Shown piece after piece: positions 6,890 to 46,019 of a stretch of DNA of 64,000 nucleotides. Where the stretch lies: NCBI GenBank assembly GCA_963828825.1, contig CAWHGF010000008.1, positions 17,608-81,607 of the forward strand, in the 5' to 3' direction. The notes beneath the pieces were generated by a model. That model saw only the letters and a list, made by a program, of their open reading frames with translations. It did not search any database and was not told the DNA's origin. The position numbers were made by a program, and so were the translations under genes. Each line of letters starts with the position of its first letter. Positions within the stretch are counted from its first letter, which is position 1. This stretch comes from an uncultured Acidimicrobiaceae bacterium. GTDB taxonomy: Bacteria > Actinomycetota > Acidimicrobiia > Acidimicrobiales > RAAP-2.

Positions 6890-6982
6890 CGGGACCGAAT
6901 GTAGACCAGCCGGCGAAGCCGGCTCACCGGCAACGATCGCGTGCGGAGCGAAGGGGGATGGCGGGGAGGGGACGAACGAGAA

Positions 6983-7474: not shown

Positions 7475-7589
7475 GAGGGTGAAGTCTACGACCTGCGATG
7501 ACCCTGGTCCGACGTTGCCGGCGTGCTCCGGCGGGTAGACTTGGCAGTCTCAGGCAGTGAGTGCCAACCAGCGGCCCCGGAGGAGTCCC

Positions 7590-7991
7590 TTGCCGACCTA
7601 TGAATACGCGTGCACGACGTGCGGGCACCGCCTCGAAGCGGTCCAGAGCTTCACGGACGATCCGCTCAGCGAGTGCCCGGAGTGCGGCGGCGCGCTGCGC
7701 AAGGTCTACGGCGCCGTCGGCATCGTCCTGAAAGGCAGCGGCTTCTACAAGACGGACTCGCGGGCGGCCTCGGGGAGCAACGGCTCCGGGAAGAAGGGCG
7801 CCGACGCCCAGAACGGCGACTCGGGGAGCAGCGATACCTCGACCAGCGATTCGTCGTCCAAGAAGGAGTCCACTTCCGAGAAGGGCGGCTCCGAGAAGGG
7901 CGGCTCCGAGAAGGGCGGCTCCGACAAGGGCGGCTCCGACAAGGGCGGGTCGAAGAGGGACACCACGCCCGCCTCCAACACGGCAAGCTGA
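7590..7991 (+). CDS. FmdB-family CxxC-CxxC zinc-ribbon protein with Gly/Ser/Glu/Lys repeat tail
   Basis: Frame of ORF 7557..7991. Start is probably TTG 7590, with GGAGG 6 nt upstream, giving (M)PTYEYACTTCGHRLEAVQSFTDDPLSECPECGGALRKVY. The C-terminus is a low-complexity (GGSEK/GGSDK)n tail. Confidence 0.8.
   Translation: MPTYEYACTTCGHRLEAVQSFTDDPLSECPECGGALRKVYGAVGIVLKGSGFYKTDSRAASGSNGSGKKGADAQNGDSGSSDTSTSDSSSKKESTSEKGGSEKGGSEKGGSDKGGSDKGGSKRDTTPASNTAS
7875..7949 (+). repeat. 15-bp tandem repeat x5 (tccgagaagggcggc / tccgacaagggcggc) encoding SEKGG/SDKGG
   Basis: Read directly: three copies of tccgagaagggcggc, then two of tccgacaagggcgg(c/g). Confidence 0.9.
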
Positions 7992-7995
7992 GGGG

Positions 7996-9360
7996 TTAGT
8001 CGCCGCTGAGCGCCATGTCGGCAATGCCCAGGGTCTGACCTGCGGCCACGCCGGGCAGCCAGCGCAGGTCGCCGCCGATCTCGACCACCGACTGCAGCAT
8101 CCGCTGCAGCGTGGAGGCGACGGTCACCTCGCGCACCGGGTGCCCCAGCGCGCCCCCCTCGATCATCAGGCCCTCCGCGCCGACCGAGAAGTCGCCGCTC
8201 ACGGTGTTGACCCCCGAATGGATCCCGAACACCGACTGCACATAGAGGCCGTCGCCGACGGCGGCCAGGATCTCGTCGTGATCCTTGGTCCCCGGGGACA
8301 GCACCACTGCCCGGCAGCCCGCGCCGGGCGTGCCCGCGAACCCGCCCCGCACGGCCGACCCGGTCGACACCGCGCCCGCCCGGCGGGCCGAGACCGTGTC
8401 GTAGACGAACGTGCGGAGCACGCCCTCGGAGATGAGGACGTTGCGCCGGCAGGCCAATCCCTCCCCGTCGTGCGACGACGCACCGTAGGCCCTGGACTCC
8501 GTCGGGTCGTCGACGAGCGTGACCCCGCCGGTGGCGACCGTCTCGCCGATGCGGCCGGCGAAGAAGGAACGGCCCTTGACGACGGCCTCACCGGACAGGG
8601 CCGATGCCATCACCGCCAGCAACGTGGACACCACCCGGGGGTCGAAGACCACGGTGCAGTGAGCCGAACGCACCTTCACCGCCCCGAGCATGCGGGTGGC
8701 CCGGAGGACGGCGTCGTCCATCGCCTCGTCGGGCACCAGATCGCCGGGCCCGCGGCCGACACTGAACCCGGTGCCGGTCTGTGTCTCGGCGCCCTCCCCC
8801 GCGATGGCATCGACAGACAGGAAGGCGTTCGTGCGCCGCCGCGACGAGGAGATGCCGGTGGTCGAGACCAACGCCACCTCCATCCGGCTGTCCGAGTAGT
8901 CGGCCGAAGAGACCTGCCGCAGCCTCGGGTCGGCCGCACGGGTCGCCCGCTCCAGCTCGATGGCCAGCGCGACCTTCTTCTCCATGGGCGTCGAGGCGAC
9001 TCCGTCATCCCACAGGTCGAGCTCCACCGCTTCGACGCCGTCGGGCGCGGCCAGGACGACATCAGGGTCCGGTGTGGCGAACCGGGCGTTGTCACGGGCG
9101 TCGGCCAGAGTGGCGGCGATGACCTCGGGCTCGAGCGACCCGGCCCAGGCGAAGCCGACCTGGCTGCCGGCGTCGCCGGTGCCGTCGACGACGAGCCGGA
9201 TGCCGACGCCGGAGGAGTCGGCCGAGGTGAGTGACTCCACCTCGCCCTCGTATGCCCGCACCGCGGTGTCGGTGCCCCGCGTGACGTAGACCTCCATTCC
9301 CTCACCCGGGAGGGCCCGGTCGACGACCGACTGCGCCAGATTCAGAAGCTCGTCGGTCAC
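7996..9360 (-). CDS. pmbA: TldE/PmbA-family metalloprotease modulator
   Basis: Frame of ORF 7996..9444. Start is GTG 9360, which overlaps the tldD stop (GTGA). The sequence VTDELLNLAQSVVDRAL...GVGIRLVVDG... and the Gly-rich C-terminal half are typical of PmbA/TldE. Confidence 0.85.
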   Translation of the reverse strand: MTDELLNLAQSVVDRALPGEGMEVYVTRGTDTAVRAYEGEVESLTSADSSGVGIRLVVDGTGDAGSQVGFAWAGSLEPEVIAATLADARDNARFATPDPDVVLAAPDGVEAVELDLWDDGVASTPMEKKVALAIELERATRAADPRLRQVSSADYSDSRMEVALVSTTGISSSRRRTNAFLSVDAIAGEGAETQTGTGFSVGRGPGDLVPDEAMDDAVLRATRMLGAVKVRSAHCTVVFDPRVVSTLLAVMASALSGEAVVKGRSFFAGRIGETVATGGVTLVDDPTESRAYGASSHDGEGLACRRNVLISEGVLRTFVYDTVSARRAGAVSTGSAVRGGFAGTPGAGCRAVVLSPGTKDHDEILAAVGDGLYVQSVFGIHSGVNTVSGDFSVGAEGLMIEGGALGHPVREVTVASTLQRMLQSVVEIGGDLRWLPGVAAGQTLGIADMALSGD

Positions 9361-10754
9361 GCCGTGCCTCCGAGGGTGACGCCGGTGATGCGCAGCGTCG
9401 CCTGCCCGCACCCGACCGGGACGCTCTGCCCGTCCTTGCCGCACGTACCCGGCGTCATGTCGAAGTCGGTGGCCACCGCGTCGATGCGCCGCAGCACTTC
9501 GGGCCCGTTGCCGATGAGGTTGGCGTCGCGCAGCGGCTCGGTGATGCGGCCCCCCTCAATCAGGTAGGCCTCGGTCGTCCCGAAGACGAAGTCCCCCGTC
9601 GCCGTGTTGACCTGCCCGCCGCCCAACTTCTTCACGTAGACGCCCGAGGGTGTCTGCGCCACGATCTCGTCGGGATCCTCCCTGCCGGCCAGCAGGTAGG
9701 TGTTGGTCATGCGCACCATCGGCAGGTGCTGGTAATTCTGGCGGCGCCCGTTGCCCGAAGACTTGCGGCCCTCCTTGCGTGCCCGCAGCCAGTCCCACAT
9801 GTAGTCCGTGAGGACCCCGTCCTCGATGAGCACGTTGCGCGCGGGCAGGCACCCCTCGTCGTCGATCGCCAGGTTGCCCCACTCCCCCAGCACCGTGCCG
9901 TCGTCCACCAGCGTCACCAGCGGGCTGGCCACCAACTGCCCGACCTGGCCGGTGTAGACGGACGCGTCCTTGACGATGTGGTCGGCTTCGAGCCCGTGGC
10001 CGCACGCCTCGTGGAAGAGGATGCCGCCGCTCCCGCCCGCCAGCACGATGGGCACCTCGCCCGACGGCGCCGGGCGGGCCGACAGCTTGGCGAGTGCCCG
10101 CGCCGCGGCCGTGGCGGCGATGTCCTCGACGCGGTGACGCTCGAAGATCTCATATCCCTCCGTGCGGGCCAGCGACTCGTACCCCGTCTGCATCCCGGTG
10201 TCGCCGTCGGCCACGCACGTGACATTGAAGCGCGTCCGGATCTGCTCGTCCTGGGCCAGGAGGCCATCGGAGTTGGCGATGAGGATGCGGCGCCGGCTGT
10301 CCCCGACTCCGACCTGTACCTGGGTGATGGCGTCACCGGCGGAGCGGGCGGCGTCGTCGGCCCGGGTGAGCAAGTCGAGTTTGCGGGCCTTGTCCACCGA
10401 GTCTGGCGACGTACGGTCACCGCGCCCGTGGGCGCTCAAGGGGTCGAGCGCCACGGTGCGCACCCCGTTTCCACCCTGTCGGGCCACCGCGGCGGCCGCC
10501 CTGGCCGCGGCCAGCAGGCCCTCCTCGCTCAGGTCGGCCGTGTGGGCGAAGCCGGTCGTCTCGCCATCGACGACCCGGATCCCCGCGCCACGCGATCGGC
10601 CGGAGGAGAGCTCCTCGACCCGGCGGTCGTCGAGCACGGCACTGGCCGTCGCGGCGTCCTCGGCGAATACCTCCGCCATGTCGCCACCCCCGACCAAGGC
10701 GGTGGACAGCACGCGTTCGAGCACGTCAGGTTCGATGAGGGCGGTGTCGGTCAC
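9357..10754 (-). CDS. tldD: TldD-family metalloprotease
   Basis: Frame of ORF 9357..11015. Start is GTG 10754 (VTDTALIEPDVLERVL...). It contains GILFHEACGHGLEADH (the HExxxH-type site of TldD) and ...GTCGKDGQSVPVGCGQ... Confidence 0.85.
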   Translation of the reverse strand: MTDTALIEPDVLERVLSTALVGGGDMAEVFAEDAATASAVLDDRRVEELSSGRSRGAGIRVVDGETTGFAHTADLSEEGLLAAARAAAAVARQGGNGVRTVALDPLSAHGRGDRTSPDSVDKARKLDLLTRADDAARSAGDAITQVQVGVGDSRRRILIANSDGLLAQDEQIRTRFNVTCVADGDTGMQTGYESLARTEGYEIFERHRVEDIAATAAARALAKLSARPAPSGEVPIVLAGGSGGILFHEACGHGLEADHIVKDASVYTGQVGQLVASPLVTLVDDGTVLGEWGNLAIDDEGCLPARNVLIEDGVLTDYMWDWLRARKEGRKSSGNGRRQNYQHLPMVRMTNTYLLAGREDPDEIVAQTPSGVYVKKLGGGQVNTATGDFVFGTTEAYLIEGGRITEPLRDANLIGNGPEVLRRIDAVATDFDMTPGTCGKDGQSVPVGCGQATLRITGVTLGGTA

Positions 10755-26199: not shown

Positions 26200-28176
26200 T
26201 TGCCCTGGGTGGGGGACGTGGTCGGGGGCCTCGTGCTGGATGCACCCGCGCCGGCGCATGCCGAGCCGCCGGTCGGACGGCGAGCCGAAAGGACCGGCCG
26301 GGCCGGCCGATGGCAATTCTGGTGCTCGCCGCCCGACCAACCCCGGTGGGCGCGACCGGCGCTCCTGCTCGTCGCCGCGCTGGCGGCCCTCTCCTACAGC
26401 TGGGGCAGCGGCAGCGCCACACTCGAGACCTTCTACGGCGCCGCCGTCCGCAGCATGTCGCAGAGCTGGCACAACTTCTTCTTCGGCGCCTTCGACCCGT
26501 GGGGCACGGTCTCGGTCGACAAGTTGCCCGGCGCTTTCTGGCTCCAGGCACTGTCCGTCCGCCTCTTTGGCTTTCACATCTGGGCCATGGTGCTGCCTCA
26601 GGCGATTGAGGGGACGCTGACCGTCCTCGTCCTCTCCCGCGCCGTGCGCCGCGTGGCGGGAGCCGGAGCCGGGCTCGTCGCCGCGGTCGCCCTGGCCACG
26701 ACGCCGGTCACGATTCTGTTGAACCGAGGCAACATCTCGGACTCGTTGCTCATTCTGCTGCTGGTGCTCGCGGCGGACGCCACCACTGCCGCCGTGATGA
26801 CGGGCCGGCTGCGCTCCCTGGTGCTCGCCGGCGTCTGGGTCGGCCTGGCCTTCCAGGCCAAGATGCTCCAGGCCTGGATCGTCCTTCCCGCGCTCTCCCT
26901 CGCCTACATCCTCGCGGCGCCCGTCGCCAGCCTGGAACGCCGGGTCGGGCGGGTGGCCCTCTCCATCCTTGCCGTGATCGCCGTCTCGCTGAGCTGGATG
27001 TGCGTGGTCAGCCTCATCCCGGCGCACGACCGCCCCTACGTCGACGGCAGTTGTGACAACTCTGTCTTCAGCCAGGTGTTCCTCTACAACGGCGCTGATC
27101 GCCTCAGCGGGAACCTGCTCGACCAGCCGGGCTGCAGCCAACCGCCCGTCGGCCGGGTGACGTCGACGAGCGGCGGCGCAGCGACCCACGCCCTCGACCG
27201 GGGACCCGGCCGTTTCCTCAGCGGCGGGTTCGGACGCGACGCGGCGTGGCTGTTCGTCCCGTCTCTGGCGGCGTTGGGGGGCATCCTGGTGGCCCGCCGG
27301 CGTGAGCCCCGCACCGACCCCTGGCGCGCCGCCGCGCTGTTGTGGGGGACCTGGCTGTTCCTGTCGTGGAGCTTCTTTGCCTCCAGCCGGTTCCTGAACG
27401 GGTACTACCTTGCCGCGCTGGCGCCGGCGATGGCCGCGCTCTGCGGCCTGGGTTTCGCACTGGCCTGGAAGCTGCGCGAGCGGACCCGGGTCGTGCCCGT
27501 CCTCGTGATGGCCACCGTCGCCGTGGGCGTGGCGTACGCCGCCTCCCTGGTGCCCGATGCGGCCGGGGTCCGCCTCTGGGTCATCACCACCAGTGCGCTC
27601 GCCACCGCGGGGGCCGTGGGCTGCCTCGCCCTCTCCCTACGACGGGACCGGCGTCCGTGGGAGCGGCGCGCCGGCCTCGGCCTGGCCACGCTGGCACTGC
27701 TCCTCGGCGGATCGTGGGCCTCGGCGACCGTGGTGGCTGACCAATTGGGGCCCTTCGACGCGCCCTACCAGCCGGCCGCGGCCACCGCGGCGCAGCAGGC
27801 CGGCTGGCAGCGCGACGTCGCCTCCTGGCCCGCTCTCGCCGCCGACGCCGCGCCCGTCCCATCCGCACAGAGCGTCGAGACCGACGAGACCTCGGCGCAG
27901 GCGAGCGGTTCCGTCCTGGCGTCCGGTCGCGAGTTCCTCCCCGTCGGCGGGTTCTCGGGCCAGGTGCCGAGCACACCGCTCAACACGTTCATCGACGACG
28001 TGCGCCACGGCCGCGTCGTGGGCGTCCTCGTTCCGGTGACGCCGCTGACCCGCAACCCCGACATGCGCTGGGTCCTGGCGCATTGCAGCGTCCAGAACGG
28101 CCCCCGGGCCAAAGTCCGCACGGGCAGCGGCGTCGACCGGCGCTACATCTGCGCACCGGCCGACGCCGGTGCGTGA
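26200..28176 (+). CDS. GT39/ArnT-like membrane glycosyltransferase
   Basis: ORF track, 658 aa. The N-terminal polytopic domain has ...FYGAAVRSMSQSWHNFFFGAFDPWGTVSVDKLPGAFWLQALSVRLFG...TPVTILLNRGNISDSLLILLLVLA..., typical of the family-39 / PMT_2 fold. Confidence 0.75.
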   Translation: MPWVGDVVGGLVLDAPAPAHAEPPVGRRAERTGRAGRWQFWCSPPDQPRWARPALLLVAALAALSYSWGSGSATLETFYGAAVRSMSQSWHNFFFGAFDPWGTVSVDKLPGAFWLQALSVRLFGFHIWAMVLPQAIEGTLTVLVLSRAVRRVAGAGAGLVAAVALATTPVTILLNRGNISDSLLILLLVLAADATTAAVMTGRLRSLVLAGVWVGLAFQAKMLQAWIVLPALSLAYILAAPVASLERRVGRVALSILAVIAVSLSWMCVVSLIPAHDRPYVDGSCDNSVFSQVFLYNGADRLSGNLLDQPGCSQPPVGRVTSTSGGAATHALDRGPGRFLSGGFGRDAAWLFVPSLAALGGILVARRREPRTDPWRAAALLWGTWLFLSWSFFASSRFLNGYYLAALAPAMAALCGLGFALAWKLRERTRVVPVLVMATVAVGVAYAASLVPDAAGVRLWVITTSALATAGAVGCLALSLRRDRRPWERRAGLGLATLALLLGGSWASATVVADQLGPFDAPYQPAAATAAQQAGWQRDVASWPALAADAAPVPSAQSVETDETSAQASGSVLASGREFLPVGGFSGQVPSTPLNTFIDDVRHGRVVGVLVPVTPLTRNPDMRWVLAHCSVQNGPRAKVRTGSGVDRRYICAPADAGA

Positions 28177-34605: not shown

Positions 34606-35350
34606 GGCAGGCAGATCCTACCGGCCGGGGCGGGCGTTGAGCTGCAGCCGGGTGCTCACATCGAATTGGGGCTGCGTGCGGCTGACCTGGTCTTTGACCC
34701 CACACTCGCCTGCCGCGAGGGTGACGCGCCGGTCCCGGCGGTGCGGCGGCGGACCGCCACACCCAACGGCACCATGCTGGCGCGCATCGCCTCGTCTCCG
34801 CCCGCCCCCGACAGCCGGGGACACGGCGGGCAGGGCTTACCTCTAAGCCGCACCATGCTCAGCGACCACAAGTCGCCTTACGTGGGTCGTTTTGCCTGCG
34901 ACTGGCCTCGACTTTCAACCACAGACCCGCACGCAGCCCGCCGCCATCCTACGCCCCGGCGGTGCGCCTACTGCCCGGGGACATTCGAGCCCGACGAACC
35001 CGAGGCACTGCCCGCGCCGGCGGGATTGGCACCCTCGAGCACCGTGACGTCGGAGATCAATCGACACCGCGCCCACCTGCTGCAGGTCGGCGATCAGACG
35101 GACGACGTCGGCCTGGGCGAGGTGATCTTGTCGTTGACGAAGGTCTGGTCGACCGCGGCGTACACCGAGGCGGTGCCCGCACCCCGATTCTCCGATTGCC
35201 AACGATATGCGCCTATTCACAATTTTGTTGTGCAAACGCTTCACAAAGTTTCAAATTTTGGCTTGCCGGTCTGTTAAAGACCCTGGCGGGTGGGCATAGT
35301 GTCATGTACTTCCTCGTAGGAGGACGAACAGAGGAGAGGGACGGAATCAG

Positions 35351-37105
35351 TTGGCGCTCCGCGAAGAAGAGCTCTCCAACCTGTGCGACGACGTCGACCT
35401 TGAACGTGACCGCGCGCTCGTCGAGCGTTGCCAGGCGGGTGATTCCGCAGCGTTCGGCAGCCTCTACGCCCGTTACTACGAGCGGCTTCTCCGCTTCTGC
35501 CTTCGCCGACTGAGCGACCGCCACGAAGCTGAGGACGCGGCGCAGGAGGCCTTCGCTCGAGCCTGGAAGGCGCTGCCGCGGTTCGCCGGCGAGCGGCGGT
35601 TCTACCCGTGGCTCACCGTGATCGCGGGGAACATCTGCACGGACATGCTGCGCCGTCGGTCGCGCAGCACGCCAACGGGCGACTTGGAACTCACGGCACA
35701 ACACCCGGTTGGCGTTGCCTGCGAGGACACGTCAGAGGAGCTTGTCCTGGCGGCTGTCGACGGCGAACTGGTCAACCGTGCACTGGGCCGCCTCTCCAGG
35801 CGTCACCGCCACGTTCTTGCCATGCGCGAGGGGTCCGGATGGACCTACCAGCAGATCGCGGACCACGAGGGTGTCGAAATCGGAACCATTGAAACGCTGC
35901 TCTGGCGTGCCCGCCAGGCGCTCAAACGCGAGTTCGCTGTCGTGTCCGATTCGAAGGAGGCCTTGGCCGGTTTCCTCATCGCCACTGGCGCACTCATCCG
36001 CCGCAGTATCTTCCGAGTGGCCCACCGTGGCGCCGGCGTGCAGCACCGTGGTGGTGGCACCGGAACGATGCGCAATGCGGTGGCGGGCGTTGCCGTCACC
36101 GGCGCCGCCGTCGCGGCGGGATTCATTGCCCCGCACGCGTGGTCGGGCGGCGCCAGCGGGGCCGGGTCGGCGCCCGGTTCGGCCCTGGCAGCGCCGCCTC
36201 TTGTTTTGGAGTCCACTACCCCCGGCACGCGGGGGACAACCGGCGCGGGTGCAGGCGCGCCGACCGTGGGTGGCGAAAATGCGGGATCGAGCGCTGCCTC
36301 GGCATCGGGCGGGTCCGTGATCGCTTCGGGCGGCACGAGCGGGTCCCGCACCAGCGGCCGAGGTGCCTCAACCACGGCTGGCGGGTTGGGGTCAATTCTC
36401 GGTTCCGTGTCCGGTGGCTCGTCGGCAGCCACTGGCAATCGCTCCAGCGGGCTCAGCCAGGCCGCGGGGGGCCTGCACAGCACCTCGAGCGGCGCGACAA
36501 GCGGGGTCGGACAGACCGCGAGCGGCACGACGAGCGGGGTCGGACAGACCGCGAGCGGCGCGACGAGCGGGGTCGGACAGACCGCGAGCGGCGCGACGAG
36601 CGGGGTCGGACAGACAGCGAGCGGCGCGACGAGCGGGGTCGGACAGACGGCGAGCGGCGCGACGAGCGGGGTCGGACAGACGGCGAGCGGCACGACGAGC
36701 GGGGTCGGACAGACCGCGAGCGGCACGACGAGCGGGGTCGGACAGACCGTGAGCGGCACGACGAGCGGGGTCGGACAGACGGTGAGCGGCACGACGAGCG
36801 GGGTCGGACAGACGGTGAGCGGCGTGACGAGCGGGGTCGGACAGACGGTGAGCGGCGTGACGAGCGGCGGGGGCGGACCGAATACCACGGTCAGTGGAGT
36901 CACGAGCGGGGTCAACGGGCTCTCGCAGTCAATCGGGCTCGGCAGCGTGATCCCGACGACGTCGGGCTCGGGATCCTCGGCCGGCTCGGGCACTTCTTCG
37001 GACACCACCACCACGACCACGACCACCACCACCACGACGAACCCGGTGCAGGGGGTACTCGGTGGCACGGGCCAGACCGTGGGTGGCCTGTTGGGCGGGA
37101 CGTAG
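35351..37105 (+). CDS. ECF-type sigma-70 factor fused to hydrophobic segments and a Gly/Ser/Thr tandem-repeat C-terminal domain
   Basis: ORF track, 584 aa with a TTG start. Region 2 is ERCQAGDSAAFGSLYARYYERLLRFCLRRLSDRHEAEDAAQEAFARAW. Region 4 is LSRRHRHVLAMREGSGWTYQQIADHEGVEIGTIETLLWRARQALKRE. These are followed by ALAGFLIATGALI and AVAGVAVTGAAVAAGFIA, a Gly/Ser-rich stretch, 11+2 copies of SG(A/T/V)TSGVGQT(A/V) and 12 Thr (37004-37039). Confidence 0.75.
   Translation: MALREEELSNLCDDVDLERDRALVERCQAGDSAAFGSLYARYYERLLRFCLRRLSDRHEAEDAAQEAFARAWKALPRFAGERRFYPWLTVIAGNICTDMLRRRSRSTPTGDLELTAQHPVGVACEDTSEELVLAAVDGELVNRALGRLSRRHRHVLAMREGSGWTYQQIADHEGVEIGTIETLLWRARQALKREFAVVSDSKEALAGFLIATGALIRRSIFRVAHRGAGVQHRGGGTGTMRNAVAGVAVTGAAVAAGFIAPHAWSGGASGAGSAPGSALAAPPLVLESTTPGTRGTTGAGAGAPTVGGENAGSSAASASGGSVIASGGTSGSRTSGRGASTTAGGLGSILGSVSGGSSAATGNRSSGLSQAAGGLHSTSSGATSGVGQTASGTTSGVGQTASGATSGVGQTASGATSGVGQTASGATSGVGQTASGATSGVGQTASGTTSGVGQTASGTTSGVGQTVSGTTSGVGQTVSGTTSGVGQTVSGVTSGVGQTVSGVTSGGGGPNTTVSGVTSGVNGLSQSIGLGSVIPTTSGSGSSAGSGTSSDTTTTTTTTTTTTNPVQGVLGGTGQTVGGLLGGT
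36488..36850 (+). repeat. 33-bp tandem repeat, 11 near-identical units (agcggc[gcg/acg/gtg]ac[a/g]agcggggtcggacagac[c/a/g]g[c/t]g); two decayed units extend to ~36925
   Basis: Unit boundaries read directly: 36488, 36521, 36554, 36587, 36620, 36653, 36686, 36719, 36752, 36785, 36818. Units 5 and 6 are identical, as are units 9 and 10. Confidence 0.95.
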
Positions 37106-37370
37106 CACCACCGGGGCGCACGGCGTGCGCCGTGAGGGCCGATCATCTCGCTCCGCGGGGTCAGCAGGTCATTCGGCTCCACATGGGGCTCATGGAGAGA
37201 TCCGCGTCGATAATGACCTGATCGCCCCCATGTACTCCGACGTTCGCGTGACGATCGAGGGCGACACGGCCTCGCTTGCATTCGGCCGGCTTGCACGTCC
37301 GGCGAGCCGGCCTGGGTGGCGCAGGCTCCGAGCGGCCAGCCCGTACCACCTCGCTGACCGCCCAACGAGA

Positions 37371-38855: not shown

Positions 38856-39080
38856 TCAGCAGTTGGCGGCGTTGCCCACGCAGTTGTTGGCGCTGCTGAA
38901 GAGGCCGGAGATGCTCCCGCCCAGTGCGGCGATCGCCACGACCGCCACGACAGCGATCAAGCCGACGAGAAGCGCGTACTCCACCATGGAGGCGCCCCGC
39001 TCGGTGCGAGCCCGCTCAAGCAACGTTCCGTGCGCTGCCCTGACTGCGACAAACGCGTTCATGAAGTATCCGATCATCAA
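38856..39080 (-). CDS. flp: Flp-family type IVb (Tad) prepilin, copy 1
   Basis: ORF track, 74 aa. It has the Flp processing/assembly motif ...TERG|ASMVEYALLVGLIAVVAVVAIAALGG..., ends in NNCVGNAANC, and has GAGGGGA upstream of the start. Confidence 0.85.
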   Translation of the reverse strand: MMIGYFMNAFVAVRAAHGTLLERARTERGASMVEYALLVGLIAVVAVVAIAALGGSISGLFSSANNCVGNAANC

Positions 39081-39379: not shown

Positions 39380-39610
39380 CTAGCAGTTGGCGGCGTTGCC
39401 CACGCAGTTGTTGGCACTGTTGAACAGGCCCTTGATGCCCCCACCCAGCGCAGCGATCGCCACAACAGCGACGACCGCGATGAGCCCGACGAGCAGTGCG
39501 TACTCCACCATGGAGGCGCCCCGCTCGGTCCGTGCACGCTCAAGCAGGTCGCCGTGGAAGCCACGCACCGCGAAGAACGCATTCAAAAACAGCTCAGTCA
39601 TTTCGGTCAT
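39380..39610 (-). CDS. flp: Flp-family type IVb (Tad) prepilin, copy 2
   Basis: Frame of ORF 39380..39703. Start is ATG 39610, preceded by GAGGAAAGGGGA: MTEMTELFLNAFFAVRGFHGDLLERARTERG|ASMVEYALLVGLIAVVAVVAIAALGGGIKGLFNSANNCVGNAANC. Confidence 0.85.
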   Translation of the reverse strand: MTEMTELFLNAFFAVRGFHGDLLERARTERGASMVEYALLVGLIAVVAVVAIAALGGGIKGLFNSANNCVGNAANC

Positions 39611-39700
39611 TCCCCTTTCCTCGCCCCAACCACCCCGGACGATTGCCCAGGCCGTATTGGAGTTCCCAGCACATTCATGACTCCATTTAGCTCTAAACTC

Positions 39701-39720
39701 CATAGGCTTATTGGACCATT
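39701..39720 (-). promoter_or_regulatory. Tad-locus motif CATAGGC-ttattg-GACCATT, 91 nt upstream of flp-2
   Basis: Read directly. Both blocks are identical to the copy at 46122-46141. Confidence 0.45.
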
Positions 39721-39754: not shown

Positions 39755-40069
39755 TCAATGGTGACGAGGCCCATGACGACGGCGCGCACCGAGCGCGTGA
39801 GTGCGGTTCGTCACATCCAACTTCTGAAAGATTGCGGCCAAATGGTTCTTGGTGGTCTTGGGGCTGATGTAGAGCCTCTGGGAGATCTCGCCGTTCGTGG
39901 CACCCTCAGCGAGTAGCTGGAGCACCTCGAGCTCCCGTTGGGTCAGGGACCAGGGGCCCCACTGCCGGTCATCCTCCCGCCGCTCCGCCGGGACCTCCGG
40001 GTCACCGAAGTCGTCATTGATGACGACCTCGAGGTCATCTCTGGTGAGTGTCGCCCGGGCGCCGCTCAT
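39755..40069 (-). CDS. stand-alone LuxR/GerE-type HTH transcriptional regulator (no receiver domain)
   Basis: Frame of ORF 39755..40264. Start is ATG 40069, preceded by AGGTGA. The HTH reads LTQRELEVLQLLAEGATNGEISQRLYISPKTTKNHLAAIFQKLDVTNRTHA. The last ~10 codons look off-frame (see rejected notes). Confidence 0.75.
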   Translation of the reverse strand: MSGARATLTRDDLEVVINDDFGDPEVPAERREDDRQWGPWSLTQRELEVLQLLAEGATNGEISQRLYISPKTTKNHLAAIFQKLDVTNRTHALGARRRHGPRHH

Positions 40070-40411
40070 GCGTTCACCTCGATGCACGGTCGTGCAGACC
40101 GACGGGCCGGAAACAGACACTTGCGTGTAGAACGCCCATTCAGGCCCACTCCCGAGCTCCAGCGCGGGTGACGGCTGCGCACTCGGCCACAGGATCGAGG
40201 CTGTGTTTGCCATTCCTCCCCCTCTTCCGCCCGGGCTTTGCGTCCGGTGCGGCTCCACCTCCACCGCAGTGCGGCGGAAACTCCCAGGTCATTGTACAAT
40301 TTCGGCGTCAAACGACAGTCGCATCAGTGTTGCGACGCGGGTGCGACCTGGGCAGATAGGACAATTTTCCGCGGAGGGGCGGCGCGAATTTCTCGCGGGG
40401 GCGGCGCGAAT

Positions 40412-41359
40412 TCAGCCCGAGTGGAAGGCGTGCTTGATCGGGCCGACAATGGGGCCCAGCACGACGATCATGATCGCCGGCAGGAAGCAGAGGGCGAGCG
40501 GGAAGAGGATCTTGACGGGCACCTTCGCAGCCTTCTCACGAGCCCGCTGACGTCGCTTGTCCCGCATCTCGTCCGCCTGCGCCTGCAGCACACGACCAAT
40601 CGGCAGACCAAGAGCGTCGGCCTGTGAGAGGACCACCGCAAATGTGACCAGGTCGTCTATATCGGTGCGCAGCTTCATGTTCTCCAGGGCATCGTGGCGC
40701 GAGAGCCCCAGCTCCATCTCTCGCAGTGTCAAACGCAGTTCGTGGCAGACGGGCGACTCGAAGCGGGCACAGGACACCTGCATCGCCTGCTCCAGGCCAA
40801 GACCGGCTGCAACGGAGATGCACATGAGGTCGAGCAGGTCGGGCAGATCGTTCGTGACACGCTCGCGCCGGACTTTGATGCGGTGACGCAGCCAATAACT
40901 GGGGGCCAGACCGCCGATCATGGGCAGGATGAATAGGCACGCGAGGCCCATCTTCACGCTGACGGCACCGCTCACCAGGGCAACCAGACCCAGGCCGATT
41001 CCGAGCATGACCGAGCCCACCTGTACGGCCACGAACTCCTCGGCACGCACTGTGCCGGTGAGACCGGCTTTGAGAAGATCGGCATGCACCCGGTCGACCT
41101 CGCTCGAAGGGTAGAGCCGGGAGAGGACGTTCTTGAAGCCTCGGGCGGCCGGTCCGAATATGCGGGTGATCAGGGGTGTCTGCACCCGCTCGACGACCGG
41201 AGTCGCCTCGGCGTAGAGCTCGGCCTCCGCGCCCAGCGAGCGGATGAAGTCGAGCCGTCTCGCGGTCTTGTGCGAGCGCCAGGCCGCAGCGCCCACGCCG
41301 ACCAGGCCCATCGTCATCAACGTGATGCCCGCCAACGGAACGATGTAGGTCGCGTTCAC
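40412..41359 (-). CDS. tadC: Tad pilus inner-membrane platform protein TadC (T2SS-F family)
   Basis: ORF track, 315 aa. It has the T2SSF-type block DLPDLLDLMCISVAAGLGLEQAMQ and a C-terminal helix pair. Confidence 0.85.
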   Translation of the reverse strand: MNATYIVPLAGITLMTMGLVGVGAAAWRSHKTARRLDFIRSLGAEAELYAEATPVVERVQTPLITRIFGPAARGFKNVLSRLYPSSEVDRVHADLLKAGLTGTVRAEEFVAVQVGSVMLGIGLGLVALVSGAVSVKMGLACLFILPMIGGLAPSYWLRHRIKVRRERVTNDLPDLLDLMCISVAAGLGLEQAMQVSCARFESPVCHELRLTLREMELGLSRHDALENMKLRTDIDDLVTFAVVLSQADALGLPIGRVLQAQADEMRDKRRQRAREKAAKVPVKILFPLALCFLPAIMIVVLGPIVGPIKHAFHSG

Positions 41360-41378
41360 GCGGTTGCCCCCTTTTGGC

Positions 41379-42371
41379 TCAGATCTTGATGTTGACCATG
41401 CGACGCACGATCCAGAAGCCCAACGCCATCAGCCCGGCTGTCCCGATGAGAACGACGAGGCCGGCACCGTGCAGCATGGGCTCGAGATACCCGGGGTCCT
41501 TCAGCTCGAGTGCGCACACCAGGAAGATGGGAATGGCGAACAGGACGTAGCCCGACATGCGCCCTTCGGCTGAGAGTGTCTGCACCTCGCGGCGCACCTC
41601 CTGGCGGGTCCGCATGAAGTCGGCCAGCGTGTGGAGGATCGGAGCCAGGCGCCCACCGGTGGACTGCTGGATCCGCACCGCCTCGACGGCCCACGTGAGG
41701 TCCTCGACGCCCGAACGCTCGGCCATGTTCTCAAGCGCCACCACGAGGTCCGAGCCGACCGCCACCTCGGCCATGACCCGGTCAAGCTCGTCCGACAGGG
41801 GCGGCTTGGCGTCCCGCCGGTACATGTCAATGGAACGCTGGAAGGTCTGACCGCCCTCGACCGACGCCGACATCAGCGCCAACGCGTCGGGCAGTTGCTC
41901 CTGAATCTGCTTGATCCTCTTGGCGGAGCGCCGCGACGGCAGGTACCACGCGACACCGGCGACGAGTGCGATCGCGATGACCGAGCCGATGGGTGACCCC
42001 ATCGTGACGCCGATCACGACCGCCAATCCGAACGCGATGGCTGAGCTGATCACCAGGTACTCCCCGGCCCGCAGCGGGATTGCGGCCCGCTCGAGTCGCC
42101 GTTCCAGGGCGCCGTGGGTGTCGACTCGTCCGAATATCCCGGAGATCCTCACCGTCAACGCAGAGAGTTCGCCGTGCTCGGGAGACTCCGTCACGACCTC
42201 GACGGGCACCTCAGCGGTCCCCATCGTGTCGTCAAGGATCTGGGCCAGCGTGCGCTGCTTGTTGCGTACCCGCATGATCAATGAGACGACCACGAGCGCG
42301 AGTCCGCCGCCGATCAGGACTGCGGCCACGAACGCTGCGCCCTGCGTACCCATCTGGGTTGCGGGCAACAT
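41379..42371 (-). CDS. tadB: Tad pilus inner-membrane platform protein TadB (T2SS-F family)
   Basis: Frame of ORF 41379..42917. Start is ATG 42371, 6 nt after the tadA stop (MLPATQMGTQGAAFVAAVLIGGG...). It has QLPDALALMSASVEGGQTFQRSI. Confidence 0.85.
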   Translation of the reverse strand: MLPATQMGTQGAAFVAAVLIGGGLALVVVSLIMRVRNKQRTLAQILDDTMGTAEVPVEVVTESPEHGELSALTVRISGIFGRVDTHGALERRLERAAIPLRAGEYLVISSAIAFGLAVVIGVTMGSPIGSVIAIALVAGVAWYLPSRRSAKRIKQIQEQLPDALALMSASVEGGQTFQRSIDMYRRDAKPPLSDELDRVMAEVAVGSDLVVALENMAERSGVEDLTWAVEAVRIQQSTGGRLAPILHTLADFMRTRQEVRREVQTLSAEGRMSGYVLFAIPIFLVCALELKDPGYLEPMLHGAGLVVLIGTAGLMALGFWIVRRMVNIKI

Positions 42372-42376
42372 CGCGC

Positions 42377-43960
42377 CTACTTTCCGTCGCGCCGGCGCGC
42401 GAGCATCTCGTACATCTCCTCCGAGGGCGGTTCGACCACCCGGCCTGGCCGCGCCGGGCGGTGATGGCGACCGGAGGGCCGACCCCCAGACCCGGATGCC
42501 GAGTCGTTGTCGTTGCGGAAGAGGTGCGCTGGCACCTCGACTCCGTTGAGCGCCAACTCGTCGAGGATCTTGGGCCGCAGGCCGGTGGACACCAGGCGAC
42601 CAAAGCCCTCGTGCATGTCGACCCGGTGGAAGATGTCCTGCAGGAGGACGGTCTCTCCTTCCATCCCCTGGATCTCGGTGATGGAATGCACGACGCGGGG
42701 TCCGGCCGGGGTGCGTTGCAGCTGCACCAGGCAGCCAATCGCCATCACGATCTGCTCTCGAATGGCTCGCTGCGGCAGCTCGACGCCCCCCATCATGACC
42801 ATGGTCTCCAGACGACCCAGCAGCTCGCGCGGCGTGTTGGCGTGCACCGTCGTCATGGACCCGGCGTGGCCGGTGTTCATGGCCTGGAGCATGTCGAGCG
42901 TCTCCGCGCCACGACACTCTCCGACGATGATGCGGTCGGGTCGCATACGCAGTGAGTTGCGCACGAGGTCACGGATCCGTACTTCTCCCGACCCCTCGGC
43001 ATTGGCCGGGCGAGTTTCAAGGGTCACCACGTGCTCACCCTGGATCTGGAGCTCCGCCGACTCCTCGATCGTGATCAGGCGCTCACCGTCGGGGATGAAG
43101 TTGGACAGCACGTTCAGCATCGTGGTCTTGCCGGTGCCGGTACCGCCGACCACGATGAGGCTGATCTTGCCCCGCACCAGCGCCTCCAGGAAAACGGCAG
43201 AATCCATGGAGAGCGAACCGAGTCCGATGAGGTCCTGCATGACCAGAGCCCGTTCCGGGAATTTTCGGATCGTGAGCACCGGTCCGTGCAACGCGAGCGG
43301 CGGCACGATGGCGTTGATTCGAGAGCCATCGGCCAGACGGGCGTCCACCATCGGCGAGGATTCGTCGACGCGGCGCCCGACCCCATGCACCATCCGGTCG
43401 ATGATGCGCCGGTACTGGTGCGGCGAATTGAAGACGATTTCGCTGCGGTGGAGCTTGCCCTGGCGCTCAATCCAGATCTCGTCGAACTTGTTACACATGA
43501 TCTCGGTGATACTGCCGTCGGCGAGCAGCGCCTCAAGGGGTCCGTAGCCGAGGGAGTCCTCGAGCATCTCTTCCACGAAGCGCTGGCGTTCGATGGGCGA
43601 GATCCCGATGTCCTCGCGTTCGAGGATGTCGTTGACCGTGGACCGGACCTTGTCGCGCAGCTCGTCCGGCGAAAGGTCGGCCGCCTTCGGGGCAATCTCG
43701 GCCAACACCTTGGCCTGGACCTTCTGCTTGGACTGCTTCCACGCGGTGTCCAGGGCAGTTCGGTCCGAAGCCCGCCGCAGGGGGTGGCCCTTGGCCCCGG
43801 ATGCCGCGGTACTACCGGCCACCCGCCGCTCGACGCCCTCGGGCATCCCCACGTCTCCCTCACGGCGAGTCCGTGGCGGAGTGGTTTCCTCCGGTGGCGG
43901 AGGCTGTGGCGACGCCGGAGGGGCACCGTCGGCTGCGGCCAGTTTCTCGGACAGGTTCAT
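42377..43960 (-). CDS. tadA: CpaF/TadA-family pilus assembly ATPase
   Basis: ORF track, 527 aa. It has Walker A VGGTGTGKTT, RIIVGECRGAE and MNTGHAGSMTTVHAN. The N-terminal ~70 aa are Pro-rich. Confidence 0.9.
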   Translation of the reverse strand: MNLSEKLAAADGAPPASPQPPPPEETTPPRTRREGDVGMPEGVERRVAGSTAASGAKGHPLRRASDRTALDTAWKQSKQKVQAKVLAEIAPKAADLSPDELRDKVRSTVNDILEREDIGISPIERQRFVEEMLEDSLGYGPLEALLADGSITEIMCNKFDEIWIERQGKLHRSEIVFNSPHQYRRIIDRMVHGVGRRVDESSPMVDARLADGSRINAIVPPLALHGPVLTIRKFPERALVMQDLIGLGSLSMDSAVFLEALVRGKISLIVVGGTGTGKTTMLNVLSNFIPDGERLITIEESAELQIQGEHVVTLETRPANAEGSGEVRIRDLVRNSLRMRPDRIIVGECRGAETLDMLQAMNTGHAGSMTTVHANTPRELLGRLETMVMMGGVELPQRAIREQIVMAIGCLVQLQRTPAGPRVVHSITEIQGMEGETVLLQDIFHRVDMHEGFGRLVSTGLRPKILDELALNGVEVPAHLFRNDNDSASGSGGRPSGRHHRPARPGRVVEPPSEEMYEMLARRRDGK

Positions 43961-43965
43961 CTCGA

Positions 43966-45252
43966 TCAGGCCCTCTCGAGCTCGGGCACCTTGTTGGTGC
44001 GACCCTTCCTCCTCAACCGCCAGAACCCGCGCGTCTCCCCGATCTCTGGCGTGTTCGAACCCGAACCGAGGATCGGTGTCATCTCATCGGAGAGGAACTG
44101 CTGCATACCCCCCGCCAGCTTCTTCCCGATTTCGGAGTTGGCTGCCGAGACGAGCGCTGGTCTTCCCTTGTTGATCGACTTCATGACGTCTCTTGAGTAC
44201 GGCAGGACAGAGACGATCTTGTTGTCCAGGACTTCCTGGACGTCACTGATATCGATACCGATGTCATCCTCGACCTTGTTGAGCACGACTCCGATCGTCT
44301 GGCTCTCGATGCGCAGTTTCTCCAGCGTGGTCAGGAACACCCGCATGTTCCGGATGCTCGGCAGGTCCAGCGTCACCATGCACAGGACCCTTGTGGAGTG
44401 GTCGAACGCCGCCAGAACGATCTCGGACAACTGAGCCGGCGTGTCGACCACGATGTAGTCGAAATGCCGGCGCAGTGAAGCCATTACTTTGTAGACGTCC
44501 TTCGGGGCGATCATGTCGGCGTCGGCCGGGCTGAAGGGCGCGGCCAACACCGAAAACCCGAGCTCGTGCTCCTCCAGGAACTCCTCGACATGCTCATCGA
44601 GATCGTCTTCATCGACCGGCTCCCGGGACAGCAAGTCCGAAATCGTGAACCGGGGCCGGAGGTGCAGCGCGGTGGATACTTCGCCGAACTGCAGGTCGAG
44701 ATCGACCAGACACACACGCTGGCCGGTCTGTGCCGCCAGATAGCACGCCAGGTTGGTGGCATAGAACGTCTTGCCACAGCCGCCGCTGGACGATGCCACG
44801 GTGAAGACCTCGGCGAACTGGGGTCGGTCGACGACGACGCCGTGAGCCACCACCGGAAGCGTGGGGTCGTTATTCGACGCGAGGTCGGCAATGTCGAAGG
44901 CACGCTTGAGGGCCGTGGCCAACTGCCGCTTGCTGGTCGGGAACTCCACCAGATCGACGGCGCCAGTCCGGACGATGTCGCTGAGATTGGCCTTCGGCTT
45001 TGGTCCGAGGGCCAGCACGATGGCGGGAACGGCTCCGGCTGCCCGCAGAGCGGCCAGGCGGGCCATGCCGGCGTGGCTGTCGAAGACGGGCCCGGCAACC
45101 AGCACGTCGATGGGGCCCTGCTGATGTACCTCGTCGACCACATCAATGACGTTGGCGCTGGTGACGACCTGATAGCCAGGTCCGAGCGAGGCCTGGATGG
45201 CCCGGCTGAGGGCCGGCGAACGGCTGATGACGAGGATCCGGCGTGTGATCAT
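43966..45252 (-). CDS. tadZ: TadZ/CpaE-like ParA/MinD-family ATPase with N-terminal receiver-like domain
   Basis: Frame of ORF 43966..45285. ATG 45252 overlaps the cpaB stop (ATGA). The N-terminus RILVISRSP...IDVLVAGP looks like a receiver domain. It has the deviant Walker A ASSSGGCGKTFYATNLA. Confidence 0.8.
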   Translation of the reverse strand: MITRRILVISRSPALSRAIQASLGPGYQVVTSANVIDVVDEVHQQGPIDVLVAGPVFDSHAGMARLAALRAAGAVPAIVLALGPKPKANLSDIVRTGAVDLVEFPTSKRQLATALKRAFDIADLASNNDPTLPVVAHGVVVDRPQFAEVFTVASSSGGCGKTFYATNLACYLAAQTGQRVCLVDLDLQFGEVSTALHLRPRFTISDLLSREPVDEDDLDEHVEEFLEEHELGFSVLAAPFSPADADMIAPKDVYKVMASLRRHFDYIVVDTPAQLSEIVLAAFDHSTRVLCMVTLDLPSIRNMRVFLTTLEKLRIESQTIGVVLNKVEDDIGIDISDVQEVLDNKIVSVLPYSRDVMKSINKGRPALVSAANSEIGKKLAGGMQQFLSDEMTPILGSGSNTPEIGETRGFWRLRRKGRTNKVPELERA

Positions 45253-46019
45253 GGCGCTGACGTCGTCTGGTCCGTGCCGATGCACTGTCCGACCGGTGGG
45301 GGCGACGCGTCCTTCTGGGTTTGGACCACGGAGATCGCCTCGTTCTGCGAGAGGAACTCGAGCGACCTTGCATTGCTCGGGCTCACGGCCAGGAGCAGCG
45401 TCTCGCTGGCCGGGATGGTGCGGCCGGCCGATGTCGGGTGGCTCGAGTACGAGGGCACCGTGCTCTCGACGTCAAGGACCTGGATATCGGCCATCGCCAG
45501 CTCAGTGCACGGTACCGGCAGGGTGGAGGCCGAAGCCGAAGCATTGGGAGCGGTCGAGAGACTCTTGATGTTGGCGTAGACGTCGACCCGGCTGCCCGGT
45601 TGGAGGTAGCCGGCCAGAGCATCTGTCCCGGTGAGAGTGACGGTCACCGCGTTCATCCCTGTCGGCAGTGAAATGGATGACGTGCTCGCAGTGAGCTGCG
45701 TCGAGCTGATTGCGTGCCCCTTTGTGATCGACTGGCTCAGGACCTCGTCGGTCAGGCCGGAGAGCGACCCCAGATCGGTCGGCGAGTACGACCTGGTCGG
45801 GATCAGCTCAATGGCGACCAGGCCACTGGACACCATCTGCTGACCGGTGGTGCCGGCCGGGATGTTGCTCTTGGCCACGACCGCCGACGTGCTCACCGGT
45901 GCCTGCACGTTGCCAGACCCCCGCTTGCTCGCGCCCTCGACACTGGCATACGCGATCGCGCTCCCGGCGATGAACAGGATCACCCCGATCATGACCAATA
46001 TCAGTGTCTGCTTCTTCAC
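45249..46019 (-). CDS. cpaB: Flp pilus assembly protein CpaB/RcpC (SAF-domain)
   Basis: ORF track, 256 aa. It has an N-terminal anchor MKKQTLILVMIGVILFIAGSAIAY, the SAF-like VVAKSNIPAGTTGQQM and ...PGSRVDVYANI... Confidence 0.85.
   Translation of the reverse strand: MKKQTLILVMIGVILFIAGSAIAYASVEGASKRGSGNVQAPVSTSAVVAKSNIPAGTTGQQMVSSGLVAIELIPTRSYSPTDLGSLSGLTDEVLSQSITKGHAISSTQLTASTSSISLPTGMNAVTVTLTGTDALAGYLQPGSRVDVYANIKSLSTAPNASASASTLPVPCTELAMADIQVLDVESTVPSYSSHPTSAGRTIPASETLLLAVSPSNARSLEFLSQNEAISVVQTQKDASPPPVGQCIGTDQTTSAP

Follow-up and report, generated by a model that had tools for sequence, protein, structure and literature searches.

A predicted membrane-tethered ECF sigma factor family associated with Mce loci in Acidimicrobiia, and an orphan member in an uncultured Acidimicrobiaceae genome

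The locus and the encoded protein

We examined a stretch of 64,000 nucleotides of contig CAWHGF010000008.1, from an uncultured Acidimicrobiaceae bacterium; this stretch is referred to as the window, and all positions in it are counted from its first letter. The gene under study lies between secA and a GS gene, and its product joins an extracytoplasmic function (ECF) sigma factor to a putative membrane anchor and a long tail of tandem repeats. An earlier reading made from the sequence alone (the sequence-only reading) had described it as a single uninterrupted open reading frame (ORF) of 584 codons, as we also found (Table 1). The TTG start agrees with the (M/V)ALREEEL starts of related proteins and is preceded by a Shine-Dalgarno (SD)-like sequence, GAGGAGAGGGACGG.

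Profile searches with Pfam place a full ECF sigma factor where it had been proposed, at residues ~20-195 (Sigma70_r2 at residues 38-105, E = 1.3e-17; Sigma70_r4_2 at 140-191; Sigma70_ECF at 23-195). The sole NCBIfam model to score above its cut-off was that of the superfamily TIGR02937 (100.5 bits against 42.9); no named equivalog or subfamily in NCBIfam did so, the best being RpoE_Sigma70 with 105.7 bits against a cut-off of 236. Regions 2 and 4 are present and regions 1.1 and 3 absent, and an AlphaFold2 (AF2) model, built from an alignment of 123 family sequences, consists in this part of two helical domains connected by a short linker, both with predicted local distance difference test (pLDDT) values >90. 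These are the features of an ECF (group 4) member of the sigma-70 family. The nearest solved structures to the core by sequence are AlgU and RpoE (E about 1e-24).

No anti-sigma domain was recognised in the protein, as the sequence-only reading had already stated. Cysteines are limited to residues 12, 27, 50, 96 and 124, and a check of these positions found no HxxxCxxC zinc-finger anti-sigma motif after the sigma domain; Pfam returned no domain past residue 195, even at E <= 1. A folded anti-sigma element was considered and rejected, as AF2 predicts only a straight extension of the last sigma4 helix, and no anti-sigma docking helix is evident in the secondary-structure and confidence output of the model. 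Two of the cysteines, Cys50 (nt 35498-35500) and Cys96 (35636-35638), lie in region 2, and a redox- or metal-related function is possible for them. All of the 123 family members (at least 31% identity) have Cys96 and at least 90% have Cys50; in 25 diverse members both are invariant.

Table 1. Positions of the sigma gene, its parts and other features in the window
Feature	Residues	Position	Strand	Basis and remarks
Complete ORF: ECF sigma, membrane anchor and repeat tail	1-584	35351..37105	+	584 aa; TTG start; stop codon included
Sigma region 2	38-105	35462..35665	+	Pfam; AF2 pLDDT >90
Sigma region 4	140-192	35768..35926	+	Pfam; AF2
Juxtamembrane segment	196-242	35936..36076	+	short hydrophobic helix ALAGFLIATGALI, then basic loop (RRSIFRVAHRG...MRN)
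Predicted single transmembrane segment, N-in/C-out, AVAGVAVTGAAVAAGFIAPH	243-262	36077..36136	+	hydrophobicity and charge statistics
Stalk, Gly/Ser/Ala-rich, nearly uncharged, predicted disordered	263-379	36137..36487	+	composition; AF2
33-bp tandem array, 11.8 copies, encoding SG(A/T/V)TSGVGQT(A/V)		36477..36867	+	Tandem Repeats Finder
Run of exactly 12 Thr	552-563	37004..37039	+	sequence count; (CAC)n tract 37003-37035 by Tandem Repeats Finder
Conserved C-terminal peptide NPVQGVLGGTGQTVGGLLGGT		37040..37102	+	alignment with relatives; Gly-rich end
Degraded MceG-like ABC ATPase pieces		37127..37351	+	scar of lost mce-mceG module
Upstream control region		35223..35350	+	blocks conserved across about 55 orthologous loci; putative promoter
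Near-palindrome TTTTGTTGTGCAAA		35223-35236		conserved upstream of sigma gene
Housekeeping-type -10-like CATAGTGTC		35295-35303		
5'-untranslated region (UTR) hairpin		35308-35326		CU-rich arm and GGAGG arm, then SD GAGGAGAGGGACGG
PMT_2 gene		26200-28176		PF13231
raiA RNA motif		34673-34935	-	Rfam RF03072
Flp-type pilin gene		38856-39080	-	
Flp-type pilin gene		39380-39703	-	
GerE/LuxR, TadC, TadB, TadA and CpaE-like ATPase genes		39755-45285		

The fusion is shared by a large family

A homology search with the window protein gave 923 matches at E <= 1e-5. Lengths among the top 120 homologues all fall within 395-564 aa; these proteins carry only sigma domains in precomputed Pfam annotation, and share near-identical N-terminal 290 residues followed by a variable Gly/Ser stretch, variable 11-residue units and a conserved end. 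In a scan of one genome per species we recovered 58 loci at >=67% identity, nearly all from uncultured Acidimicrobiaceae or Acidimicrobiales metagenome-assembled genomes (MAGs), and further loci at 48-55%; the sigma ORFs extracted from them are mostly intact and 440-560 aa long. An exhaustive search against representatives of 50%-identity clusters gave 312 clusters matching at E <= 1e-30. Among the best 150 of these the proteins are mostly 300-600 aa long, and most alignments reach query residues ~220-300, into or through the hydrophobic region. A profile search for distant members was dominated by the close family, and two more divergent loci (P0162 and P0128) were added for genomic context.

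The layout persists to about 45-50% identity and is kept in 25 aligned diverse members with 31-49% full-length identity to the query. These share a core signature (DVDxxRDRxLV, GERRFYPWLxVIA, LREGSGWSYQxIAxHEGV and the conserved Cys50 and Cys96), then a short hydrophobic stretch, a basic patch, an Ala-rich uncharged segment and a low-complexity tail, and the tails of diverse members often carry periodic TVxG(V/L) motifs. Every element of this signature is found in the window protein: core, hydrophobic helix, basic loop, transmembrane (TM) segment and low-complexity tail. In no relative among the loci examined are the two parts encoded as separate intact genes. Judged by these comparisons, the sigma-anchor fusion is genuine and conserved, represents a large undescribed family, and is not an assembly artefact; the sequence-only reading had likewise argued against a simple read-through, and the lengths and layout of the homologues bear this out.

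Predicted membrane topology

Two hydrophobic stretches had been noted after the sigma core and are present as described: LAGFLIATGALIRRSIFRV (residues 205-223) and AVAGVAVTGAAVAAGFIAP (residues 243-261), with 19-residue Kyte-Doolittle means of 1.28 and 1.84, respectively. AF2 predicts one helix from residue 177 to residue 225 that takes in both the last helix of sigma4 and the first hydrophobic stretch (pLDDT about 70). The gap between region 4.2 and the hydrophobic helix is only about 8 residues long, and that between sigma4 and the predicted TM segment only about 47.

Across the 123 family members, the TM segment has a Kyte-Doolittle value of at least 1.6 in 112 and is free of charge in 116; it is an uncharged segment of ~19-22 residues whose position, not its sequence, is kept. 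The loop that precedes it is basic, with a mean of 5.2 Lys and Arg residues, and in 118 of the 123 members this loop is more basic than the 25 residues that follow the segment. Such a one-sided positive-inside signal points to a single-pass N-in/C-out topology. We infer that the family proteins have a single-pass membrane anchor and an external tail, an arrangement suggested by the sequence-only reading and now backed by family-wide hydrophobicity and charge bias.

Association with Mce loci and loss of the module in the window

Synteny was compared across 61 loci (identifiers beginning with L; L074-L076, cited below, are distant loci). In 44 of the 58 close loci, the sigma gene is divergent from an operon comprising two yrbE (MlaE) genes and a variable number of mce (MlaD) genes; in the same 44 it is followed on its own strand, after ~60-130 bp, by a gene for an MceG-like ABC ATPase, and then by GS, Flp, GerE and TadCBA. 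The sigma gene is apparently co-transcribed with mceG, given the shared strand and the short gap. The other arrangement, found in 14 loci including the window, has FtsE-PrfB-SecA, sigma and GS-Flp-GerE-Tad and is without Mce genes. At P0162 (52% identity) and P0128 (64%, N-terminal region) the sigma gene is again divergent from a Mce operon and followed by the ATPase, and it lies near genes of lipid and steroid catabolism (acyl-CoA ligase, ChsH2-like proteins, thiolases, CoA-transferases and patatin); GS, Flp and Tad genes are absent from both loci. As Mce and MceG are kept in divergent members from which Tad is absent, the conserved partner is Mce/MceG and not Tad. Ancestral coupling of the sigma family to a Mce lipid-uptake locus (yrbEAB-mceA-F) is the best-supported interpretation of this gene order. 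At L074, a distant relative, the mce operon and sigma are kept apart by three inserted genes (5997-9596, minus strand); their products are a sortase, an Ala/Thr/Gly-rich protein of 470 aa that has a TM segment and a basic tail at its C-terminus, and a 317-aa TM protein ending GWLGGLFGG.

No MlaD- or MlaE-like ORF was found anywhere within the 64-kb window. Between the sigma stop codon and the GS gene, at the position filled by the intact ATPase in 44 relatives, there are two remnants of mceG: one corresponds to aa 14-31 and has an in-frame stop (37127-37180), and the other, frameshifted, corresponds to aa 276-311 (37244-37351). Similar scars occur in seven loci of the window-type arrangement (L011, L053, L005, L016, L040, L043 and L044). 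The median dN/dS of the sigma2 domain is 0.059 in orphan lineages versus 0.011 in Mce-linked ones, at a dS of about 0.8. By these comparative criteria the window sigma is a derived orphan that lost the adjacent mce operon and mceG and is still under purifying selection, and its targets must lie outside the 64-kb window. Both the Mce link and the mceG scar directly after the sigma gene were missed by the sequence-only reading.

A candidate promoter upstream of the mce operon

Aligned in the direction of the mce operon, the divergent intergenic regions have in common an invariant bipartite element, CCGCAAGgT...CCGTTTTTc. In each of 39 Mce-linked loci its core, GCAAG-N16-CGTTT, is found a single time, in every case ahead of the mce operon. 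Of 41 hits, 38 have a spacer of 16 nt, the sequence of which varies, and a scan of about 2 Mb gave a single off-target hit. The element is located ~216-346 nt upstream of the sigma start, on the minus strand, in L002-L061 (e.g. L013:7618-7730). After it come a small hairpin in which compensatory changes are seen, a conserved ~95-nt leader for which there was no Rfam match, and an SD sequence, GGAAGGGGGGA, ahead of yrbEA/mce. ECF promoters have the geometry AAx-N16-CGT, with AAC as the canonical -35 half. We consider GCAAG-N16-CGTTT likely to be the cognate ECF promoter that drives the mce operon. In L074 and L075 it is the sigma gene that has this element ahead of it, on its own strand and at -147, as would be expected for autoregulation. 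Taken together, divergence from a Mce operon, a position upstream of mceG and the presence of the element in the locus characterise 44 of the 58 close relatives and L074-L076, and are not found in the window. The Mce-linked loci also contain TCAACCCCnGTTCA, an AAC...GTT inverted repeat reminiscent of operators of the TetR/KstR type.

Upstream of sigma, close relatives have a housekeeping-type -10 (cATAATGTg), the near-palindrome TTGTTGTGCAA and a 5'-UTR hairpin. An autoregulatory ECF-type promoter upstream of the window gene was considered and rejected, the conserved blocks resembling instead a housekeeping -10, a near-palindromic operator and a 5'-UTR hairpin. In this hairpin, which lies just upstream of the SD sequence, an anti-SD-like CU-rich arm pairs with a GGAGG arm with apparent covariation between loci, and it may control sigma translation. 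The operator-like near-palindrome is duplicated in L002 and L003. Four looser matches to the bipartite element in the window (including 37394 on the minus and 55992 on the plus strand) were set aside, as they are at chance level and in unconvincing positions for promoters.

The repeat tail and its C-terminal motif

Gly makes up 26% of the window tail, Thr and Ser 19% each and Pro 2.5%, and 7 of its 316 residues (about 2%) are charged; tails across the family (n = 123) have a median length of 188 aa and are about 77% G/S/T/A/P/V and about 6% charged. All the elements listed by the sequence-only reading (the repeats, the 12 Thr and the Gly-rich end) are present, with 11 SG(A/T/V)TSGVGQT(A/V) units at residues 380-500 plus decayed copies. 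The underlying array has 96% matches and no indels by Tandem Repeats Finder. Variation in repeat number among relatives had been suggested as a check, and nearly all close relatives have an array at the same position with 2-8 copies (e.g. 7.8 in L040, 6.4 in L002 and 5.1 in L046), so that the stalk is not a one-genome feature; the 11.8 copies of the window are the highest number among the loci compared. From this comparison the array is best described as a length-variable, locally homogenised stalk that is not peculiar to the window genome. A hendecad arrangement (4-4-3 Val spacing) that would make the 11-mer repeat an amphipathic helix was also considered; it is unsupported, AF2 giving low-confidence coil.

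The protein ends in ...TTTTNPVQGVLGG..TVGGLLGG, which is in frame in both the window and its relatives and thus validates the window reading frame; the pattern in close relatives is ...TTTTTNPVQG.LGG..KTVGGLLGG. In several MAGs (L015, L025, L041, L050, L054, L006, L007 and L039) the sigma or Mce tails contain frameshifts. The genuine tail goes on in another frame, which places the errors in those MAGs and accounts for the aberrant Arg-rich ends of some; probably they are assembly errors in GC-rich repeats, and automated annotations of the genes concerned are truncated.

We scanned stop-to-stop ORFs of >=200 aa in 57 loci and the window for C-termini of the pattern L[LI]GG.{0,3}$. It matched 28 of 57 sigma ORFs, 30 of 149 Mce ORFs and 8 of 1,843 other ORFs, and all 8 background matches are frameshift fragments either of sigma tails or of the Mce paralogue with this ending. 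One Mce paralogue per locus ends ...PTNLGGIITQLLGGxx; Mce subunits at distant loci end ...LLRPLLGGSG and ...YIEALLGGGL, and the L074 sigma ends ...VSKVLGGL. Mce proteins have C-terminal tails of low complexity, which are located outside the cytoplasm where the transporter has its distal end (PMC1810536, PMC13492129). The end shared with these tails supports an external position of the sigma tail, and the occurrence of LLGG in both hints at a shared partner.

Other features of the window

The ORF that the sequence-only reading called a glycosyltransferase does match PMT_2; it is about 7 kb from the sigma gene, with the housekeeping genes ftsX, prfB and secA between the two. Much of the 745-bp intergenic region between secA and sigma is filled by a full-length raiA RNA motif upstream of secA (142.6 bits against a gathering score of 101.3, E = 2e-36). 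On the other side, the Tad locus is as close as had been described: the nearest of two tandem Flp-type pilin genes, which are 85% identical, is about 1.75 kb downstream of sigma, and the GerE/LuxR, Tad and CpaE-like genes follow them. The Tad genes are on the strand opposite to sigma, beyond the unrelated GS gene, and are syntenic with sigma only in the close family (Flp in 48 and TadC in 41 of the 61 loci).

Comparison with known systems

Membrane-fused proteins combining sigma and anti-sigma functions are an established category (PMC8999054, PMC5826349), so that the sequence-only reading, which knew of no characterised mechanism for a membrane-tethered sigma with a repetitive Ser/Thr ectodomain, overlooked precedents. 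In Actinobacteria, the sigma factors of groups ECF48, ECF52 and ECF53 have a ZAS zinc finger (pfam13490), one or two TM helices and extensions that reach 400 aa, and proteolytic release has been proposed for them; among them, SCO4117 of Streptomyces coelicolor (ECF52), which is partly characterised, has a Pro-rich linker and a carbohydrate-binding module (PMC8999054, PMC5826349). IutY of Pseudomonas putida (ECF243) is activated by Prc and RseP proteolysis, and its truncated sigma is constitutively active (PMC8999054, PMC5826349). Members of ECF263 have five or seven TM helices in a C-terminal extension.

We compared the known ECF groups by their described domain features. The window protein resembles ECF52, ECF48 and ECF53 in being an actinobacterial ECF sigma with a TM segment and a long low-complexity extracytoplasmic extension, in its case a TM-grade segment at 243-262 and a tail of ~320 aa, without a separate anti-sigma gene. 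It differs in that those groups have the ZAS domain between sigma4 and the TM segment, whereas here there is neither ZAS, nor a Pfam domain past residue 195, nor a fold in the AF2 model; in place of the Pro-rich linker and carbohydrate-binding module of ECF52 there are Gly/Ser/Thr repeats ending in LLGG, with little Pro; and the genomic partner of the present family is Mce with MceG. Like IutY, it would combine in one chain an ECF sigma at the N-terminus, a TM segment and an extracytoplasmic sensor part, and would work with an uptake system. IutY, however, is proteobacterial, with a FecR-type anti-sigma/periplasmic domain and signalling through a TonB-dependent receptor; the present protein has an Acidimicrobiia host and no FecR hit in Pfam, its partner in relatives is the Mce ABC importer, and its neighbours are Mce/MceG in relatives and SecA/GS in the window. 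ECF263 differs in its number of helices, as only two hydrophobic stretches, one of them TM-grade, are found here. The window protein thus lacks the defining features of IutY, of ECF48/52/53 and of ECF263 and, by domain comparison, is a member of none of them, although it appears to work like them.

Further likenesses concern parts of the system. With RpoE/AlgU the protein shares the sigma core, and its predicted anchor resembles the topology of RseA in being single-pass and N-in/C-out; RseA and MucA, however, are separate proteins in which a folded N-terminal anti-sigma domain sandwiches sigma2 and sigma4, whereas here the anchor is covalently fused and such a domain is absent. As with Mce1R, Mce2R, Mce3R and KstR, a regulator is associated with the locus and divergent from the yrbE-mce operon, but the known Mce regulators are soluble repressors of the TetR or GntR/FadR type. 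Among the Mce accessory proteins (Mam/Omam, LucA and Mce1N), the Mam and Omam proteins are likewise single-pass membrane proteins with an envelope-facing part, but they have no DNA- or RNA-polymerase-binding domain. There is no mention of a sigma factor in Mce regulation in the Mce literature searched, including a 2026 review, and no mention of Mce in the ECF classification paper.

Proposed mechanism and alternative explanations

We propose, with a probability of roughly 0.6, that the window gene encodes a one-component, membrane-tethered ECF sigma factor that was ancestrally dedicated to Mce, would be silenced by its tether and released by proteolysis, and is an orphan in this genome. The cytoplasmic RpoE/AlgU-like core would continue, through its sigma4 helix, into the hydrophobic helix and basic loop at the inner face of the membrane, which would be crossed by one Ala/Gly/Val-rich TM segment. 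Outside, ~320 almost uncharged, disordered Gly/Ser/Thr residues would form the repeat stalk and poly-Thr run, up to the hydrophobic LLGG end. Tethering would keep the sigma inactive by pinning the helix that reads the -35 element near the membrane, in which case a separate anti-sigma domain would not be needed. A cue from the envelope or related to Mce, sensed through the tail, would trigger site-1 and then intramembrane cleavage and so free the sigma; activation by regulated proteolysis is suggested here by analogy with IutY and ECF52. Beyond this, it is conceivable, though rather doubtful, that the tail mimics a Mce subunit tail, with LLGG docking to the same envelope partner or to the distal end of the Mce needle, so that sigma release would report on Mce assembly or lipid import and feed back on mce through GCAAG-N16-CGTTT.

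Several observations weigh against the proposal of a tethered, Mce-dedicated sigma. AF2 shows no helix for the proposed TM segment and no confident structure from residue 231 onwards (nearly all pLDDT values for residues 231-584 are <50), and by a simple sum of Hessa-scale values the segment is marginal (+3.5 to +3.7). Neither a protease nor a cleavage site was identified. The candidate promoter has AAG, not the canonical AAC, in its -35-like half; it could bind another regulator or act as an operator, or belong to the mce leader RNA, and a U-rich/purine hairpin can be drawn near it. It is absent from the 64-kb window at <=1 mismatch (1.8 expected by chance), and in close relatives the promoter of the sigma gene itself resembles a housekeeping promoter, not an autoregulated one. 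As the adjacent mce genes are missing here, the Mce function is extrapolated from relatives. The LLGG-like end is kept in just 14-29 of 109 diverse family representatives, and an unrelated envelope protein of L074 has an ending of this type too; LLGG may therefore be a general feature of envelope tails rather than specific to Mce.

An anchored sigma might be active without release, recruiting RNA polymerase to the membrane for mce or envelope genes, with a tail that does no more than anchor the protein or space it from the envelope; there is a precedent in transcription factors that are bound to the membrane (ToxR, CadC), there is neither an anti-sigma domain nor a recognisable cleavage motif, and the gene appears to be constitutively promoted from its housekeeping-type -10. 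We regard this as unlikely, as the short gap before the hydrophobic helix would probably hinder -35 and beta-flap binding sterically, the TM segment has Gly and Pro, which would be typical of site-2 protease substrates, and IutY is released by proteolysis, as has been proposed for SCO4117 through sigma excision. Quite improbable, in our view, is a soluble cytoplasmic ECF sigma with a disordered C-terminus that modulates its activity through autoinhibition, condensate formation or turnover. The AF2 coil, which includes the putative TM segment, is what such a protein would show, the segment is Ala/Gly-rich and only moderately hydrophobic, and Ala-rich stretches are common in high-GC proteomes. 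Against it stand the conserved position of the uncharged segment and the strong one-sidedness of the Lys/Arg bias; near-absence of charge is, moreover, typical of wall-spanning linkers and not of cytoplasmic disordered regions. The tail also shares its end with Mce subunit C-termini, which are extracytoplasmic in the published architecture (PMC13492129).

The sequence-only reading had looked to the neighbourhood, suggesting a mucin-like Ser/Thr ectodomain O-glycosylated by the nearby GT39/PMT-type enzyme and, as a possible regulon, the Tad/Flp locus. The Ser and Thr content of the tail with its 12-Thr run, the PMT_2 gene and the presence of GS-Flp-GerE-TadCBA downstream in most close relatives are in keeping with this, but a functional link to Tad does not extend beyond those relatives: Tad and GS are absent in members at about 50-64% identity that retain Mce and MceG, the Tad genes have the opposite orientation, and the candidate motif is missing from the whole window, including the regions upstream of Tad and Flp. 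The PMT_2 gene is also separated from sigma, by ftsX, prfB and secA. This explanation therefore has little to recommend it as a whole; O-glycosylation of the tail by the PMT_2 enzyme is possible, and is compatible with a tethered sigma rather than an alternative to it. Finally, the ORF might be an artefact in which a sequencing or assembly error, or a recent mutation, fused a sigma gene to the gene of a membrane or repeat protein. High-GC repeats are error-prone and several MAG relatives have frameshifted tails, but we consider this extremely improbable: the fusion recurs in about 60 species-level genomes and in independent assemblies numbering in the hundreds, separate intact genes for the two parts were seen at none of the loci examined, the conserved C-terminal motif is in frame in the window, and the frameshifts are attributable to the MAGs concerned.

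Significance

Fusion of an ECF sigma factor to a membrane sensor of its own is the least understood way in which these factors are regulated, with IutY and SCO4117 as the only cases studied. In a family without a recognisable anti-sigma domain, one must ask how a tether could by itself keep a sigma factor silent. This large family, which comprises hundreds of clusters at 50% identity, is common among the Acidimicrobiia of soil, for which there is no genetic model; it offers a testable circuit made up of a candidate promoter, a target mce operon and a shared terminal peptide. If the tail does mimic Mce tails, this would be transporter-coupled cell-surface signalling in an actinobacterium, with sensor, anti-sigma function and sigma in one polypeptide, and the first control of a Mce system by a sigma factor, and the variable stalk of 11-residue repeats would tune the reach of the protein across the wall. 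If the proposal of a tethered, Mce-dedicated sigma is confirmed, it would add a sigma-factor layer to the regulation of Mce, so far known to involve TetR- and GntR-type repressors only, and the window would show the fate of such a regulator once its transporter has been deleted.

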